Source: an uncultured Acidobacteriota bacterium (GTDB lineage: Bacteria; Acidobacteriota; Thermoanaerobaculia; Gp7-AA8). Taken from it: a stretch of 64,000 nucleotides of DNA. Position 1 is the first letter of the stretch. Every line of letters begins with the position of its first letter. The position numbers were made by a program, and so were the translations under genes. The notes below the pieces were generated by a model. The model ran no database searches. It was given only the letters and a program-made list of their open reading frames with translations, and was not told where the DNA came from. Shown one piece after another: positions 2,666 to 54,800 of this stretch. The DNA lies in NCBI GenBank assembly GCA_963822445.1, contig CAWGHO010000001.1:416001-480000 (forward strand), given 5' to 3'.

Positions 2666-3617
2666 ATGCCCTCGAGACGAAAAAACGATTACGAGCCCGA
2701 GTCCCTCCCCCTTCGCGTTCTTGCGGTCGACGACGACGGTTCCTATCTGCGCCGTCTGAAACTCGTCCTGACGCGCGCCGGTTTCGATGTGACCACGGCC
2801 GATGACGGCGCCACGGCCATCGAGCGCATTCGCGCCGATCGCGACATCGCCGTGCTGGTCAGCGATCTGTCCATGCCGGGCATGGACGGCATCGAGACCG
2901 TTCGCCGCGCCCGCGAAGCGTCGGCGTTTCCCGGGCTGTACACGATCCTGCTCACGGCGACGGATGGCGTCGAGGTGAAGCTTCGCGCGCTCGACAGCGG
3001 CCTCGATGATTTTCTGACCAAGAGCTCCTCGGACTCGGAGATCGTGGCCAAGCTGCGCAGCGCCGCACGGCGTTTGACGATGGAGCGGCGGCTGCAGGTC
3101 GAGAACGAAGAGCTGCAGACGCTGGCCCTCACCGACGAGCTGACCGGCGTCGCCAATCGGCGCGCCCTCTTTCGCGAGGCCGACGCCGATTCTCGGAGCG
3201 GGACGCGGCTTGAGCGTGGTGCTCTTCGACCTCGATCGCTTCAAGCACGTCAACGACACGTACGGTCACCTGATGGGCGACCGCATCCTCGCCGACGTCG
3301 CCGCCGCGCTGAAGCTCGACACGCGCGTCGGAGACGTGATCGCGCGCTACGGCGGCGACGAGTTCGTGCTCTTGCTGCCCGATACGCGCGGCGACGAAGC
3401 ACGGGCCATCACCGGGCGCATCGTGCGGCGGATTTCCGATCTGCGCTGGGTGATGGGGGACTACGTCGTGACGTCGAGCGTGAGCACGGGCGTGGCCACG
3501 TCGGGATCGGCGAGCACGATCGCCACGCTGCTCGCGGAGTGCGACGCGCGGCTGTACGAGGCGAAGAACGCGATGGATGAGGAAGAGGACGAGCGGGATC
3601 TTCAGTTGCCGATCTGA
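2666..3617 (+). CDS. Response-regulator diguanylate cyclase (REC-GGDEF); frameshift near 3190
   Basis: REC (VLAVDDD, SDLSMPGMDG), DELTGVANRR, then DLDRFKHVND and YGGDEF in the next frame. Confidence 0.88.
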
Positions 3618-4413
3618 TCGTCGTAGAGATACTTTTCTCTGACCTCGGCTGACCACTCGGAATTCGGGTCGATGGCCAGGTAGTCCTTCCAGGCTTGGTC
3701 TGTATATAGGATCGTGGCGCGCGTCCAGGCGATGTTCGGCGATTTTTTCAACTGCCAGGCGCGCTCGATCGTCTCCTTGGCCCGCGGGTCCTGAGTCTCG
3801 TAATACGCCGCGGCGAGGTCGTTCAGAACGTCCGGATTAGTGGGCGTCTGGGCGACGGCCTTTTCGAGGAACTCGACAGCGACTTTCTTGAAGTCAGCGT
3901 TATCCACCAGCAGGCAGGCTACCCCCGCGGCGTGGAGATTGGCAGCAGTCTCGCGCTTTTCGGCAATGTCAGCGAGTCGCACCGCCTCGGTCATCATGCT
4001 CGACTCAGCCTGCTGCTCGTCTTTGCCTCCTCGAGGATTGCTGCGGTCCTTGTAGGCGATCTCAATGCTTGGTCGTGCGGCGATTGAACGCTCCCTCAGA
4101 TTCGCGCTGGCCGCGGTGATCTTCCGGAGGGATCGCTCCGCCAGAATCCGTCGGCCGGTCCAAGGAACACGGCGGCCGCAATCGCCGCTGCCGCGGCCAG
4201 CGTCGCCGCCGGAATCAGCCAGGAACGCCAGATCGGAACGACCTTCCCCTCGTGGTCTGCCTCCTCGGCAATCTCGTGTGCTGTCTGGAACACGTCGCGG
4301 CACTCGCTGCAGGTCGACACGTGCTCGAGCACTTGCTGTCGCGCGTCGCCTGTCAAATGGCCATCAATGAAAGCGGCCAGGGTTTCGTCGGCAGGGCAGT
4401 TCGGCATCATCAC
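3602..4413 (-). CDS. zf-HC2 anti-sigma factor with TM segment and C-terminal TPRs; frameshift near 4140
   Basis: CPADETLAAF..HVSTCSECR (ZAS motif), hydrophobic segment, TPR-like NPDVLNDLAAAYY. Confidence 0.75.
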
Positions 4414-48246: not shown

Positions 48247-48501
48247 ATGAAGAAGTTCATCACGTTGCTGTGCGCAGTTCTTCTCGTCACGGTCGTTGCC
48301 TGCAAGAAGGATGAGGTCGAGTCGACCGACACCGTCACCACGGACACCGTGGCCACGGACACCGCCACGGTGACCACCGAGACCACTTCCACGACGACCA
48401 TCTCGTCCGAGACCGACACGTCGGTCCAGACGAGCACCGACGCGACTGCCGGTACGACCGACACGTCTGCCACGGGCACCGTTTCCACCACCACCACCTA
48501 A
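48247..48501 (+). CDS. Small Thr/Asp/Ser-rich lipoprotein
   Basis: RBS AAGGAG; MKK-hydrophobic-VVAC lipobox; low-complexity tail. Confidence 0.85.
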   Translation: MKKFITLLCAVLLVTVVACKKDEVESTDTVTTDTVATDTATVTTETTSTTTISSETDTSVQTSTDATAGTTDTSATGTVSTTTT

Positions 48502-51500: not shown

Positions 51501-51876
51501 GAAGGACGACGATCCCGCCGCCGCTTCGACAGCGGAGAAGACACCCGACCCGATCACGAAAGCGGGCGGGGATCTGAAGAAGAAGCTCGACGCGATGGAG
51601 AAGCGCCTCTGGGTCCCGCCCAAGACGAAGGGAATCGTCGCGGAGACGGACGTCCTGAACAAGATCACCTACCCGCTGTTCTCGCTGCAGTCGTCGTGGG
51701 ACGCGCCGACCCCGTCGCAACTCGCCTACCTCGACCGGGCCGAGGCCGAACTAAGGAAGATCCTGGCGGACTACAACCGCCTCTTCGCCGAAGACGTCGC
51801 CCGCTTCCGCGAGGAAGTGAGGAAAGGGAACGTGCAGTTGTTGCCCGAGGTCGAGCCGATCGAGATCAAGAAGTAG
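48562..51876 (+). CDS. Secreted BNR/Asp-box (VPS10/sortilin-like) beta-propeller protein
   Basis: IGPAAMSGRI, many SxDGGxTW boxes, GGMQDNGSW. Confidence 0.9.
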   Translation: MSASRPAALLLSLLLTTTVPAQTTGQIDPELLAGMKARTIGPAAMSGRIAAIDVVESNTDIVYVGAATGGVWKSMNGGLSFAPLFDDQPVAAIGALKIFQPSPEIVWVGTGEGNPRNSMSVGNGVYKSVDGGKTWQHLGLEKTERIHRIVLHPRDPNVAWVAAMGQAWGQNADRGVFKTTDGGRTWTKVLYVNERTGAADLVIDPVNPNKLFAAMWEYRRWPWFFNSGGPGSGLHVSYDGGATWKKFTEEDGMPKGDLGRIGIAIARSNPSIVYALVEAEKSALLRSDDGGRKWTAVNTEYNVASRPFYYAEIHVDTEDPNRVYNLYSLVSLSTDAGKSFKTLVPFAKVHPDYHAMWINPSDASHIFVGNDGGVAESEDRGNSWRFVATLPLAQYYHVAVDNETPYNVYGGMQDNGSWKGPNTTWETTGIRNWDWQEVGFGDGFATLPIPGDPMTGYAMSQEGYLVRWNLRTGERKDIRPPAPDDASELRFNWNAAIALDPFDANTIYYGSQFVHKSTNRGDSWTVISPDLTSNRKEWQHQGRSGGLTLDVTGAENFTTLMTIAPSPIERGVIWTGSDDGRVHVTRDVGGTWTSVEANIKGVPANTWVPEITASRHGNGTAFIVFDDHRRSNWTPYVYRTTDYGKTWTSLVTKTIQGYALSIEQDPVDPDLLFLGTEFGLWVSNDAGKSWLKWTHGVPTVSVMGLVVHPRDHDLVVATHGRSAFVLDDIRPLRTVSKETLSAPLHLFEVPDAQSYRTRQKEGSRFLGDAEFRGENEPYGALLTYSLNLPGLPHPTEEKERERKEQEREAARKVRVPETGVPVVVEDVPKEPEASAKPAPKPETPSDKPPQVDIEVSDASGKVIRKFKGPAKLGINRTTWDLGRDQFKRPKSDDPPSEFQPQSGPEVPPGTYTVTVKFRGNEAKQTVRILPDPRHPIDATARQANYDAVVRAGALYEAVTNGIERIRQTRTDIDAVLAKQKKDDDPAAASTAEKTPDPITKAGGDLKKKLDAMEKRLWVPPKTKGIVAETDVLNKITYPLFSLQSSWDAPTPSQLAYLDRAEAELRKILADYNRLFAEDVARFREEVRKGNVQLLPEVEPIEIKK

Positions 51877-51953
51877 GCGGTACGGCGCTTCGCGCCTCGC
51901 GGTAGGCGGTAGGCGGTGGCCTGAAACGGTCTCCCGCCTACCGCCTACTGACT
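51873..51953. repeat. Heptamer hairpin (GGCGGTA / TACCGCC)
   Basis: GCGGTAGGCGGTAGGCGG...CCGCCTACCGCCTACTG. Confidence 0.7.
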
Positions 51954-52006
51954 CTGTGTAACGTTTCCGCTCCCCTCGTCACTACTCCTGAAAACAGGAG
52001 GCATTC

Positions 52007-53266
52007 ATGGCTGGCAAGCGTGGACAGGGCGGCGGCGACATTCCTACCAACGACAACTACTCCGGCGGCGAGTACCGCAGCAGCGGTGACGTGCGCACCG
52101 GTTTGATCCAGCGTGCGAAAGGAACCATTCCGGTCCAGTACGCGGTCGTGGACGGATTGGCCATCTTCGAAGGCGACATCGTCCTCGGCACGGCGGCCGA
52201 AGTTCAGAATGAGACCGAAGTGCTGCGCAATCCGGAAGGGTTCGCGTCGGCGGTCGTGATCGTCGGCGCGCAGTTCCGCTGGCCGAACTGCATCGTCCCC
52301 TTCACCATCGACCCGGCGCTGCCGAATCAGGCCCGCGTCACCGACGCGATCGCGCATTGGGAAGCCACCACGAACTATCGCTTCCCCGCCAAGACCTCGG
52401 TACACACGGACTGGATCACTTTCCGTCCCGCGGGCGGCTGCTCCTCGCACGTCGGCCGTCAGGGCGGACAGCAGTTCATCAACCTCTCCAACGCCTGCTC
52501 CACCGGCAACACCATCCACGAGATCGGTCACGCCATCGGCCTGTGGCACGAGCAGAGCCGCCAGGACCGCGATCTCTTCGTCAACATCATCTGGGCGAAG
52601 ATCGACCCCGCCCTCGCGCATAACTTCAACCAGCACATCACCGATGGCGACGACGTCGGTCCGTACGACTACGGCTCGATCATGCATTACCCCCGCACGG
52701 CGTTCTCGATCGACGGCAGCGACACGATCGTGCCCATCAATCCCGCAGGCGCGATGATCGGCCAGCGCAACGCGCTCAGCCCCGGCGACATCGCCGCGGC
52801 GAACTCGCTCTGCACGCCGGTCGTGACCACGAAGAAGGAGCTCACGTCCGATCCGATCACCAAGAAGGAGCTGGTCAAGGACGTCCGCCTGGACACGAAG
52901 AAGGAAGTCATTCACGACACGCGGAAAGAGTTCATCAAGGACAAGTTCAAGGACGTCTCCTTCGATCCGATCAAGCGCGTCGGGCTCGACCCGCCTTTCA
53001 CCAAGCCGGGCGGCCGCGTCATCAATCCGGCGATCATTCGCCGGCCGGGCGAGGCCGTTCCGTTCGCCGTGGCCGCACCGCATCAGGCTCCGGGTGCCGA
53101 AAACGAGGAGACCATCAACGCCATCGGGCAGCTCGACGCGCAGTTGCAGCAGATCGCGGATGCGCTGAACGAGACCGAAATGCAGCGCGACTCGCTGCAG
53201 CAGCAATACGACGAGACGCTGGCTCTGCTCAATCAGCATCTCGACAGCGCCGATCCCCAGGGCTGA
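52007..53266 (+). CDS. Astacin (M12A) metalloprotease with C-terminal T[KR]KE-x3-D repeats and helical tail; candidate graspetide precursor fusion
   Basis: RBS AGGAGG; FEGDI propeptide, HEIGHAIGLWHEQSR.DRD, SIMHY Met-turn; no signal peptide. Confidence 0.88.
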   Translation: MAGKRGQGGGDIPTNDNYSGGEYRSSGDVRTGLIQRAKGTIPVQYAVVDGLAIFEGDIVLGTAAEVQNETEVLRNPEGFASAVVIVGAQFRWPNCIVPFTIDPALPNQARVTDAIAHWEATTNYRFPAKTSVHTDWITFRPAGGCSSHVGRQGGQQFINLSNACSTGNTIHEIGHAIGLWHEQSRQDRDLFVNIIWAKIDPALAHNFNQHITDGDDVGPYDYGSIMHYPRTAFSIDGSDTIVPINPAGAMIGQRNALSPGDIAAANSLCTPVVTTKKELTSDPITKKELVKDVRLDTKKEVIHDTRKEFIKDKFKDVSFDPIKRVGLDPPFTKPGGRVINPAIIRRPGEAVPFAVAAPHQAPGAENEETINAIGQLDAQLQQIADALNETEMQRDSLQQQYDETLALLNQHLDSADPQG

Positions 53267-53275
53267 GGGCTCGCG

Positions 53276-54217
53276 ATGATCGTCGTGATCTCCCATCCCG
53301 ATGACGTGCATGCCGGGCACGTGCTCGGCCTGCTCGAGCGCGACGGCAGCGAGGCGATGCTTCTCAACATCGCCGAGCTGCCCGAGCGCGCGACCATGAC
53401 CATCGACTACGGCCGCGGCGAAACGCCGCGGCTGTCGTACGGCAACAACGGGCATTCGATCGATCTGTCGAACGCGAAGTCCGTGTGGTGGCGGCGCCCG
53501 CAATCGCCCGACCTCGCCGCGGTCGGCAACGACGACGTGTACGCGTTCGCGCAGAACGAGTGGCAGGAAGCGCTGAACGGGATGTGGCAGCTCGTCGATG
53601 CGCCCTGGATGAATCCACCGGCGCGCGACGAGGTGGCATCGCGAAAGGCGTTGCAGTTGCGCGTCGCGAATGAAGTCGGTCTGCGCACCCCGCGGACGAT
53701 GATGACCTCCGATCCCGACGCCGCCCGCCGCTTCATCCAGGACGAAGGCCTCGGCAAAACGATCTTCAAGACCTTCTCCTGCACGCACAAGATCTGGCGG
53801 GAAACGCGGCTGGTGCGCGCGGAAGAGCTGGAGATCCTCGACCGCGTCCGCTACGCGCCGGTGATTTTTCAGGAGTACATCGAGGCCGAAGCCGATCTGC
53901 GGGTGACCGTGGTCGGCGACAGGATGTTCCCGGCGGCGATCCACTCACCGGGAACGGACTACGAGGTCGATTTCAGGATGTCGCTCGGCCAGGCTCGGAC
54001 CGAGGCTTGTGAGCTGCCGCCGGCGATCGAGCAGGCAGTCTTCGCCCTCATGAAGCGCCTCGGGCTGATTTACGGAGCGATCGACATCCGCCGCACGCCC
54101 GCGGGCGAGCATGTCTTCCTCGAAGTGAATACTGCGGGGGAGTTTCTCTTCGTCGAGGAGCGCACCGGCCAGCCGATCGGGAGGGCGGTGGCGGACTGGT
54201 TGGCTCGGCCGGCCTAA
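53276..54217 (+). CDS. ATP-grasp peptide ligase, graspetide synthetase (MvdC/MvdD-like)
   Basis: SVWWRRP, WMNP..A..K..QL..A..VGL..P.T, PVIFQEYI, DLRVTVVG, DFR, LGLIYGAID, FLEVN..GEF.F.E. Confidence 0.88.
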   Translation: MIVVISHPDDVHAGHVLGLLERDGSEAMLLNIAELPERATMTIDYGRGETPRLSYGNNGHSIDLSNAKSVWWRRPQSPDLAAVGNDDVYAFAQNEWQEALNGMWQLVDAPWMNPPARDEVASRKALQLRVANEVGLRTPRTMMTSDPDAARRFIQDEGLGKTIFKTFSCTHKIWRETRLVRAEELEILDRVRYAPVIFQEYIEAEADLRVTVVGDRMFPAAIHSPGTDYEVDFRMSLGQARTEACELPPAIEQAVFALMKRLGLIYGAIDIRRTPAGEHVFLEVNTAGEFLFVEERTGQPIGRAVADWLARPA

Positions 54218-54390
54218 TCGGCGGCTTCGTTTTCGGCGGGGGAAAAGACGTCGTCGTCCGGGATGATCTCGGGGCCGCCCGACTTCTCACCGGTCTTCTT
54301 CTGGGCGCGTTTTTCGGCCTTGGCCGCGGCACGCTCGCGCCGCTGCTGCTCTCTCTGTCGCTTGACGAAACTGGCTTGCGGTCTACCCAA
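54214..54390 (-). CDS. 58-aa small protein with basic N-half and acidic tail
   Basis: RBS GGAGGTG, TTG start; MGRPQASFVKRQREQQRRERAAAKAEKRAQKK..DDDVFSPAENEAAD; below the ORF-track cutoff. Confidence 0.7.
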   Translation of the reverse strand: MGRPQASFVKRQREQQRRERAAAKAEKRAQKKTGEKSGGPEIIPDDDVFSPAENEAAD

Positions 54391-54428
54391 CTCTCACCTC
54401 CGGAAACGTAACTGGATGATGCCACACA

Positions 54429-54463
54429 AAAACAGAAACGGGCAGGATCACTCCTGCCCGTTC
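54429..54463 (-). terminator. Rho-independent terminator after csp
   Basis: Minus strand GAACGGGCAGGA-GTGA-TCCTGCCCGTTT followed by CTGTTTTT. Confidence 0.8.
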
Positions 54464-54485
54464 CGGATGTAGGTCGACTTTTCAG

Positions 54486-54689
54486 TTAGACCGGGACGAC
54501 GTTCGCCGCCTGAAGGCCTTTCGGGCCCTGCACGACATCGAACTCGACCGCGGCGCCTTCAGCCAGCGACCGGAAGCCGCCGCCCTGAATGGCCGAGAAA
54601 TGGACGAACACGTCGTCACCCTTCTCGCTCGTGATGAAGCCAAAGCCCTTAGCGTCGTTGAACCACTTCACATTTCCAGATGTTCTCAT
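54486..54689 (-). CDS. Cold-shock protein, CspA family
   Basis: [24 protein letters not shown]. Confidence 0.97.
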
Positions 54690-54800
54690 TGAATCTCCTT
54701 TCTGTGTTGCCTCAGGAGATCCGTGCGACGTTTCTCGAGCTGCATATCACTTGTGTAGACTCAACCTAACCGGTCACCAGTGCTTCTAATTCCGTCCGGG

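Follow-up and report, generated by a model that had tools for sequence, protein, structure and literature searches.

Graspetide ligases are familiar as enzymes that produce small cyclic peptides. For two branches of these ATP-grasp enzymes, branches 7 and 8 of Makarova 2022 (PMC8939145), the text of that survey states that no precursor could be predicted and that most of the loci encode peptidases of several unrelated families, a YscW homologue being often present in branch 7. Similarly, the graspetide 'group 30' ligases of Carter, Ramesh, Saad, Mubarik & Mitchell 2026 (PMC13097080) neighbour peptidases, and most group-30 rows in the part of the table considered here list YscW-like proteins of ~113 aa or other small open reading frames (ORFs) as the precursor. 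Group 30 is probably branch 7, as judged from the published text and not from the tree. Here we describe a two-gene cassette found in a 64,000-nucleotide stretch of DNA from an uncultured Acidobacteriota bacterium (the window), in which an astacin protease ending in a repeat-bearing tail (gene 1) is followed by an ATP-grasp ligase (gene 2). Comparison of homologous loci indicates that the substrate of the ligase is probably the tail of the neighbouring protease itself.

The repeat tail and its association with the ligase

The cassette has the following features.

52007..53266, + strand: gene 1, astacin with repeat tail (419 aa; ORF call)
52007..52276, + strand: N-terminal prosegment, aa 1-90, with FEGDI at aa 54-58 (52166-52180) (conservation, AlphaFold2 (AF2) model)
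52277..52813, + strand: astacin (M12A) catalytic domain, aa 91-269 (Pfam, Foldseek, invariant columns)
52829..52966, + strand: proposed core region, four T-[KR]-K-E-x3-D units plus KFKD/VSFD (motifs, alignment, unit counts)
52829-52852, + strand: TKKELTSD, aa 275-282 (motif search)
52859-52882, + strand: TKKELVKD, aa 285-292 (motif search)
52895-52918, + strand: TKKEVIHD, aa 297-304 (motif search)
52919-52942, + strand: TRKEFIKD, aa 305-312 (motif search)
52943-52954 and 52955-52966, + strand: degenerate units KFKD and VSFD (motif search)
52967..53059, + strand: Pro/Gly-rich linker of variable length (gappy in the 30-sequence alignment; predicted local distance difference test (pLDDT) <50)
53060..53083, + strand: PFAVAAPH, aa 352-359, proposed follower motif for the ligase (conservation)
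53105..53251, + strand: Gln/Leu/Ala-rich helix, aa 367-415, 49 residues (AF2 pLDDT 82-92, conservation)
53276..54217, + strand: gene 2, ATP-grasp ligase (313 aa; ORF call)

The stop codon of gene 1 (TGA, 53264-53266) is separated from the ATG of gene 2 by a 9-nt gap. An initial annotation, made from the sequence alone, had given the extent of the two-gene unit, the gap, and the positions of the four cores and of PFAVAAPH correctly to the base, and had also named KFKD/VSFD.

In an alignment of 30 homologues of gene 1, T285, K287, E288, D296, T297, K299, E300, D304, T305, K307 and E308 were invariant; the unvarying residues of the repeat region were thus the Thr, Lys and Glu of the last three units and the Asp closing two of them. 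A larger set of 74 homologues contained 315 T-x-K-E units (2-10 per protein, most often 4), at a spacing of 8 (127 times) or 12 (83 times). Asp was found at position +7 in 301 of these 315 units and at position -1 in 246, while positions +1, +4, +5 and +6 varied. With the Asp positions largely kept and those in between varying, the repeats are not due to chance. As far as the alignments indicate, the conserved residues of the tail are exactly the possible nucleophiles and acceptors (Thr/Lys and Asp/Glu). The tail therefore has the Thr/Lys donors and Asp/Glu acceptors in a conserved pattern that are expected of a ribosomal graspetide substrate; it is not a small free-standing precursor with a leader to be removed, its carrier being a 419-aa astacin. 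When the tail (aa 265-419) was used as query, 74 proteins matched among 1121 candidates of 230-734 aa, and all 74 carried PF01400. No free short form of the tail was found: only 2 of 224 shorter candidates matched, and both came from short contigs (2020 and 580 bp).

Downstream of the repeats, P352 was invariant and F353, A354 and H359 were at least 90% conserved in the 30 homologues. A P-F-h-h motif is present at the equivalent place in the tails of the M43, S1 and LamG proteins described below. PFAVAAPH fits the signature 'Phhx(1,2)h' published for leaders in the Makarova 2022 survey (PMC8939145), but it sits C-terminal to the cores, unlike the usual N-terminal leader. Conservation in the helix concerned L376, D377, L380, A384, L397, Q398, Q400, Y401, D402, E403 and T404, and the helix may be part of a ligase-docking follower or an oligomerisation element. 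In the AF2 model, the segment from the repeats to the motif (aa 274-364) had a pLDDT <50, which would fit a substrate that is unstructured and accessible.

The loci of ligase relatives were collected with one genome per species, the best 80 loci of 228 relatives being kept. Forty-six of them (L003-L048, 39-76% ligase identity) formed the forward set, and one (L012) had no upstream DNA. At all 45 evaluable loci a large gene lay directly upstream on the same strand and had short K/T + D/E repeats, a motif of the P-F-h-h type and a helix at its C-terminal end, so that the expectation of the initial annotation that repeats and PF motif would be retained upstream of the ligase homologues was borne out. 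These upstream genes, referred to here as cargo, comprised 15 astacins, 21 M43 peptidases, 8 trypsin-like proteases and 1 LamG protein. The Pfam scan of 43 of them gave 14 Astacin, 20 Peptidase_M43, 8 Trypsin_2 and 1 Laminin_G_3; the other two were assigned without it, L004 (an astacin cut by the contig start) from the PF01400 record of P0076 and L027 (M43) from its HEVGHWLNLRH motif. By comparison, 29 loci at 31-36% ligase identity included at least 8 with classical PFFARFL…T-x-K-Y-P-S-D precursors.

For the reverse test, an astacin-alignment scan gave 480 relatives, of which the best 80 loci were kept; 79 had an ORF with the zinc motif (the exception being L134), 4 had too little downstream DNA, and 75 were evaluable. 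A ligase was found directly downstream in 35 of the 75, and 34 of these 35 carried an intact tail; the remaining one (L105) is frame-broken. By contrast, none of the 40 astacin loci without a ligase (at least 1000 nt of downstream DNA) had an intact tail, and their C-termini consisted of other domains or nothing. Three contigs recur in the forward and reverse sets. A hidden Markov model of the window-type follower and helix matched distant tail types weakly and was not used for counting. Comparative genomics thus supports the view that tail and ligase go together in both directions, and with it the proposal of the initial annotation that the tail would be the substrate of the ligase. Frame breaks inside the cargo gene were seen at L014, L030 and L105, of which at least L014 and L105 are in metagenome-assembled genomes; these are either assembly errors or decaying copies.

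Nature of the ligase and alternative readings

Gene 2 matched the Pfam MvdD pre-ATP-grasp domain and the RimK-like ATP-grasp domain (E 8.4e-08). The second match would fit an enzyme of RimK/GshB type that extends a C-terminus with amino acids (e.g. poly-Glu) or produces a small metabolite, without forming side-chain rings, and every NCBIfam graspetide model did score under its own cut-off (TIGR04187, 235.6 bits; MvdC, 183; MvdD, 181), because of which gene 2 belongs to none of these three subfamilies. The rimK_fam model, however, reached no more than 58.4 bits for a cut-off of 143.4, the MvdD pre-ATP-grasp domain is present, and a search of PDB chains (E <=0.001) returned six matches (5ig8, 9bou, 5ig9, 7m4s, 7mgv and 7drm), all of them graspetide ligases (MdnB, MdnC, AMdnB, CdnC, PsnB and 9bou), with E-values of 3.8e-42 for 5ig8, 1.4e-32 for 5ig9 and 3.9e-19 for 7drm (PsnB), and neither a RimK chain nor a GshB chain. 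When 38 ligases were aligned, six of which adjoin PFFARFL-type microviridin precursors, 34 columns were invariant, and the window ligase, which groups beside the microviridin-type ligases and is 33-36% identical to those of microviridin-type loci, retains all 34. They include the E-x-N of FLEVN, which we take to be a functional motif. In a quick IQ-TREE tree of 93 ligases, whose root, like its long outgroup branch, should not be relied on, 85 protease-linked ligases formed one clade (Shimodaira-Hasegawa-like approximate likelihood ratio test (SH-aLRT) 95) separate from seven rows of microviridin type. The window ligase is placed among 18 rows of D-T-[RK]-K-E astacins, whose sister group consists of six actinobacterial 'P-E-T-I-K-E-R' astacin rows (24-row clade together, support 100). 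Gene 2 is accordingly a graspetide-type ATP-grasp ligase of the MdnB/MdnC/PsnB kind and not a RimK/GshB enzyme, in line with the MvdC/MvdD-type motifs noted in the initial annotation, and the RimK-like reading seems to us hardly credible.

Another candidate substrate is encoded in the window upstream of the cassette, beyond a hairpin.

48247-48501, + strand: 84-aa lipoprotein, lipobox …VVAC, mature part composed nearly entirely of T, D, S, E, A and V
51900..51948, + strand: strong hairpin, GC-rich, with GGCGGTA-type repeats (RNA fold of 51877-51960)

Several points weigh against the tail as the substrate of the ligase. The pLDDT <50 of aa 274-364 may mean 'unknown' and not disordered. The reverse count of 34 tails was partly manual (27 by regular expression and 7 by reading the sequences), the regular-expression classifier having missed 8 of the 35 ligase-linked loci, and the genomes behind many of the loci are related, which makes these loci non-independent, so that the figures are counts and not a statistical test. 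One astacin locus (L160) retains a tail remnant without a ligase, and five ligases inside or beside the clade (L049-L052 and L072) have no tail gene in the DNA examined. Furthermore, for group-30 ligases RODEO, a trained predictor, names other ORFs as precursors (PMC13097080, in the part of the table considered), and in L003/L087 and L005 the gene next upstream of the astacin is that of the lipoprotein. As to the role of the tail, proteases as the near-exclusive cargo (44/45) argue that proteolysis matters, and the tail could be released by the protease, restrain it or need protection from it. However, one cargo is a LamG lectin-fold protein and no protease, which weakens a protease-specific rationale, and this cargo, together with the lack of any transporter gene in the 64-kb window, fits none of the three neatly. 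The remnant at L160 (Streptomyces malachitofuscus, 2671-4098) consists of PFVLATTPHQ and a helical end with almost no repeats, there is no ligase in the 2.9 kb downstream, and the locus is possibly a decayed cassette. At L049-L052 and L072 (Anaeromyxobacter and related) a long TPR-like protein is encoded upstream in place of the tail gene.

If the lipoprotein were the substrate, the astacin would be merely a maturation or resistance protease. The lipoprotein is rich in Thr, Asp and Glu, it is present on the contig of the cassette in all three cassette-bearing genomes of the same genus (G010, G012 and G014), and a homologous lipoprotein is listed as the precursor in one group-30 row from Thermoanaerobaculia (HYH09562.1; PMC13097080). 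It has no P-h-h motif, and its lipoprotein signal (…VVAC) would remove it from the cytoplasm, the compartment in which a ligase dependent on ATP acts. An 1108-aa gene and the strong hairpin stand between it and the cassette in the window, and neither the 4-kb flanks of L006-L011 nor any of the other loci, those in other phyla included, contain it. Of 34 other genomes of the genus, 21 had the lipoprotein, while the cassette, and with it the tail, was found in 3 (19 of 32 and 3 of 32 without the unpublished G002 and G025), and 18 of the 21 lipoprotein-bearing genomes showed no cassette with the tail query. Because of this difference we regard it as an ordinary resident gene beside the cassette, whose occurrence is independent of the latter, and reject it as the substrate; that it should nevertheless be modified appears highly improbable. 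The claim of the initial annotation that no other precursor is nearby thus held in so far as the lipoprotein was rejected, but the published RODEO table names a homologue of this very protein as a precursor. The ligase might also act on peptides made elsewhere, with an unrelated role for the tail, e.g. in export or oligomerisation. This corresponds to a guess made in the Makarova 2022 text for branches 7 and 8 (PMC8939145), namely that the neighbouring peptidase cuts other cellular proteins and so supplies the ligase, and it would agree with the five related ligases without a nearby tail gene and with the presence of a free multi-core precursor in the same genome. It fails to explain the joint gain and loss of tail and ligase (34/35 versus 0/40 intact), the invariant T, K, E and D of the tail, and the fact that the ligase co-varies with the tail and not with the catalytic domain, and we consider it unlikely. 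The free precursor belongs to a second, classical graspetide locus (L002, C2:22562-26443), in which a small ORF with three T-x-T-I-E-x-x-D-Q-D-P cores (~1170-1507) adjoins its own 314-aa ATP-grasp ligase (~1492-2436), only 29% identical to the window ligase; it was therefore rejected as an in-trans substrate. Finally, the tail could be the substrate but the bonds intermolecular, the helix gathering the chains and the ligase building a covalent protease assembly. The long, confidently modelled and conserved C-terminal helix would suit this, as would the cross-linked protein dimers that ThfB is reported to yield in engineered constructs (PMC13003496, part of the paper considered). Known natural graspetide bonds are intramolecular in the two surveys as far as considered here (PMC8939145, PMC13097080), and the 8-residue unit has one donor and acceptor pair per repeat, suiting local rings; we think such an assembly very unlikely.

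The astacin, the other cargo proteins and the genomic setting

Gene 1 encodes a complete astacin domain, as had been annotated: PF01400 matched residues 91-268 with an E-value of 4.2e-46, the zinc motif HEIGHAIGLWHE at aa 171-182 (52517-52552) conforms to HExxHxxGxxHE, and the Met-turn SIMHY is at aa 224-228 (52676-52690). Four Cys of the domain (C95, C145, C164 and C269) were invariant in the 30 homologues; they presumably correspond to the two astacin disulfides and hint, at the level of sequence, at a working life outside the cytoplasm. In the prosegment, E55, G56, D57 and I58 of FEGDI did not vary in the same alignment, and aa 31-70 were modelled by AF2 as a beta-rich, confident segment (pLDDT 79-88). 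FXGDI is the aspartate-switch motif common to animal astacin prodomains, and the bacterial astacin myroilysin has no such motif (Gomis-Ruth & Stocker 2023, PMC9848320, sections on these enzymes). The bacterial astacin described here thus carries a prosegment motif of animal type. The top Foldseek matches of the gene 1 model were BMP1, hatching enzymes and crayfish astacin (E about 1e-14, 29-41% identity), while myroilysin ranked behind the animal astacins (20-22% identity). Zinc site, SIMHY Met-turn, fold and FXGDI prosegment are therefore all those of M12A, and the product of gene 1 would be a latent astacin zymogen.

In agreement with the initial annotation, no signal peptide was apparent in gene 1, the first 45 residues being hydrophilic in a crude hydropathy check that involved no signal-peptide predictor. 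A hidden signal peptide reached from an upstream start was rejected, since the open frame begins just 15 nt before the ATG. Gene 1 scored 303.7 bits with the NCBIfam LegP model (NF045530), passing its cut-off of 300 by only 3.7. The name LegP implies a Dot/Icm effector context, and the label of gene 1 should be limited to 'LegP-like astacin'.

The type of repeat tracked the ligase clade and not the protease family. K-x-x-[DE]-D units were found on M43 (L013), S1 (L015, L023) and M12A proteins (L017, L019 and others), and P-K-[DE] units were carried by 19 M43 proteins, by the single LamG protein and by an astacin (L121). The tails of an M43 protein from Phycisphaerales (L013) and an M12A protein from Pyrinomonadaceae (L017) were 43% identical over 135 aa (E 2e-28), both with PF[IV]LSTPHHSMAW, and their ligases were 54% identical, while the catalytic domains are unrelated. 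These comparisons indicate that tail and ligase move jointly between unrelated protease families. Cellulomonas biazotea has two cassettes on two contigs, L032 with a trypsin-like cargo and T-x4-D repeats and L121 with an astacin and P-K-Q/P-K-x, each with its own ligase, and these ligases come from different parts of one 8-row clade of the tree. The distribution of the cassette is patchy: the tail turned up in none of 26 additional genomes searched from the same family, order or class, while ligases 60-70% identical to that of the window were present in records of Chloroflexota, Actinomycetota and Pseudomonadota.

A hydrophobic N-terminal stretch was found in none of 41 cargo ORFs by the crude hydropathy check, in which their highest windows corresponded to an internal strand of the M43 domain. 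The M43 cargo proteins (L013, L024-L048) have in their N-terminal 20-45 residues, before the M43 domain, a conserved segment …R-[RQ]-x-C-[GA]-T-x-x-V-[HN]-E-R-L-[LM]…. This looks like the cysteine-switch prosegment described for pappalysin-family enzymes (PMC6949598), again without a signal peptide. From this we infer that the module sits on latent-type zymogens of normally secreted families, all without Sec signals.

An AGGAGG sequence is found 6 nt 5' of the gene 1 ATG. The hairpin 51900-51948, situated between gene 1 and the stop (51876) of the 1108-aa gene, which is sortilin/BNR-like, had a folding energy of -52.6 kcal/mol and a z-score of -5.94, none of 200 shuffles being equal (fold of 51877-51960). 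We read it as setting genes 1 and 2 apart as their own unit. It was not picked up by a simple terminator scan, and a promoter/terminator scan of 51700-54700 gave no signal exceeding that of shuffles. The hairpin could be a terminator or a repetitive extragenic palindrome (REP)-like element; other metagenome contigs pile up at 51800-51973 in read depth, which suggests a repeated element. When four sequencing runs were mapped, a 188-nt contig from a soil RNA library matched 53299-53481 with 2 differences, which is at most a weak hint that the ligase gene is transcribed, as DNA can occur in such libraries; the runs share at most 0.15 of sampled words with the DNA queried. Neither product was matched by PADLOC, so there is no support from this side for a defence system. 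The 64-kb window contains no YscW-like gene.

Proposed mechanism and comparison with known systems

Gene 1 would be made in the cytoplasm as a latent astacin zymogen, with its FEGDI aspartate-switch prosegment and no signal peptide, its C-terminus being a portable module composed of [D-T-x-K-E-x3-D]n, a linker, P-F-A-V-A-x-P-H and a long helix. The follower, in place of a leader, on which the ligase would dock is the PF motif, probably with the helix as a further part; with ATP the enzyme would activate Asp/Glu side chains and join them to Thr hydroxyls (as esters) and/or Lys amines (as isopeptides). Ring closure would take place within the repeat units of the still-latent zymogen in the cytoplasm; since every unit contains a single T, K, E and D, it could hold as many as two rings. 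In this scheme the anatomy, the type of ligase, the two-way co-occurrence and the joint transfer of tail and ligase are observed, and docking, chemistry and ring pattern are inferred.

By rough estimate, the modified tail may, with a chance somewhat below even, remain attached to the protein, where it would form a locked appendage that resists proteases and has a regulatory or targeting role. Release of the tail by the fused protease as one or several multi-core graspetides is possible but less probable, and what remains would go to other fates, such as intermolecular cross-linking through the helix. We would advance only tentatively the broader idea of a natural protein-scale graspetide chemistry, in which a portable module and its ligase are grafted onto latent signal-less zymogens and the cross-linked tail acts as a latency lock, a stabiliser or an export handle, which would be a new way of controlling proteases.

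If the tail is indeed the substrate, the cassette would supply the missing substrate of a whole ligase branch, for which two surveys, in the parts considered here, gave no convincing precursor. It would further imply that stapling of the kind known from ribosomally synthesised peptides with modifications made after translation (RiPPs) is used in nature on full-size enzymes, and that a natural follower-type recognition sequence exists for the graspetide class. The module would be transferable, being seen on four unrelated domains, and thereby attractive for protein engineering. The question would then arise of how zymogens of the astacin, M43 and trypsin-like kinds, which lack a signal peptide and have conserved cysteines, become active, and of where they work.

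Astacin zymogens (crayfish astacin, meprin, LAST-MAM) have FXGDI, HExxHxxGxxHE, SIMHY, the four Cys and the fold in common with gene 1; they differ in that gene 1 has no signal peptide, and the repeat tail and the adjoining ligase are additions found in the gene 1 cassette. With group 30 of Carter 2026 and branch 7 of Makarova 2022 the cassette shares the ligase clade and the peptidase neighbourhood. As far as the parts of these surveys considered here go, they note the link between ligase and peptidase but neither names the protease tail as the substrate, as we do, and the remark of the initial annotation that the architecture is undescribed remains valid to that extent. In group 30, the entry listed under Cellulomonas pakistanensis corresponds to the L018 ligase, which falls in the 24-row clade containing the window ligase; the 114-aa 'precursor' listed for it is convergent and lies just after the ligase. 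DTRKE, PFVLATPHH and PFVLSTPHH had no occurrence in the examined part of the Carter table, and the figures of the supporting information may hold more. A literature search gave no paper joining graspetides to astacins and no report of a natural protease-fused graspetide precursor, the listed titles of graspetide papers from 2024 on included. On our interpretation of these sequences, which we hold to be likely correct, the protease-fused, ligase-linked tail is an arrangement of graspetide kind that has not been recognised in the literature considered here.

Borosins, in which the RiPP core is fused to its own modifying methyltransferase, provide a precedent for a core that is the tail of a full-size enzyme, as in gene 1. 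In borosins, however, the fused enzyme is the modifier, whereas the cassette has a protease in this position and encodes the modifier by a gene of its own. The predicted likeness to microviridin (MdnA with MdnB/MdnC; MvdC/MvdD) concerns the fold and family of the ligase, the P-F-h-h motif and the Thr/Lys + Asp/Glu chemistry, and multi-core precursors, as in the gene 1 tail, exist there too. Microviridin has a free precursor of ~50 aa with an N-terminal PFFARFL leader, a TxKxPSDx(D/E)(D/E) core and two ligases, in contrast to the one ligase, the motif C-terminal to the cores, the D-T-x-K-E-x3-D unit and the 419-aa enzyme carrier of the cassette. Plesiocin (PsnA2/PsnB), corallotide and myxomiditide have tandem short units in variable number, with one ligase closing small rings, and the units of the cassette appear to be alike. 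In the parts of the papers considered, corallotide is described as having a large precursor with five Lys-isopeptide repeats (PMC13097080), and MyxF as forming tandem Lys(i)-Glu(i+3) small rings in the (KxxE)n of myxomiditide (PMC12848669). The precursors of all three stand alone with N-terminal leaders, none being fused to a catalytic domain, unlike gene 1. Lastly, an engineered swap from leader to follower works for ThfA/ThfB (PMC13003496), and protein substrates of ThfB have been engineered (PMC12291112), at least as reported in the sections considered here. A recognition sequence C-terminal to the core and a whole protein as substrate, both proposed for the cassette, are therefore feasible; the ThfB constructs are man-made, whereas the arrangement of the cassette is natural and widespread.

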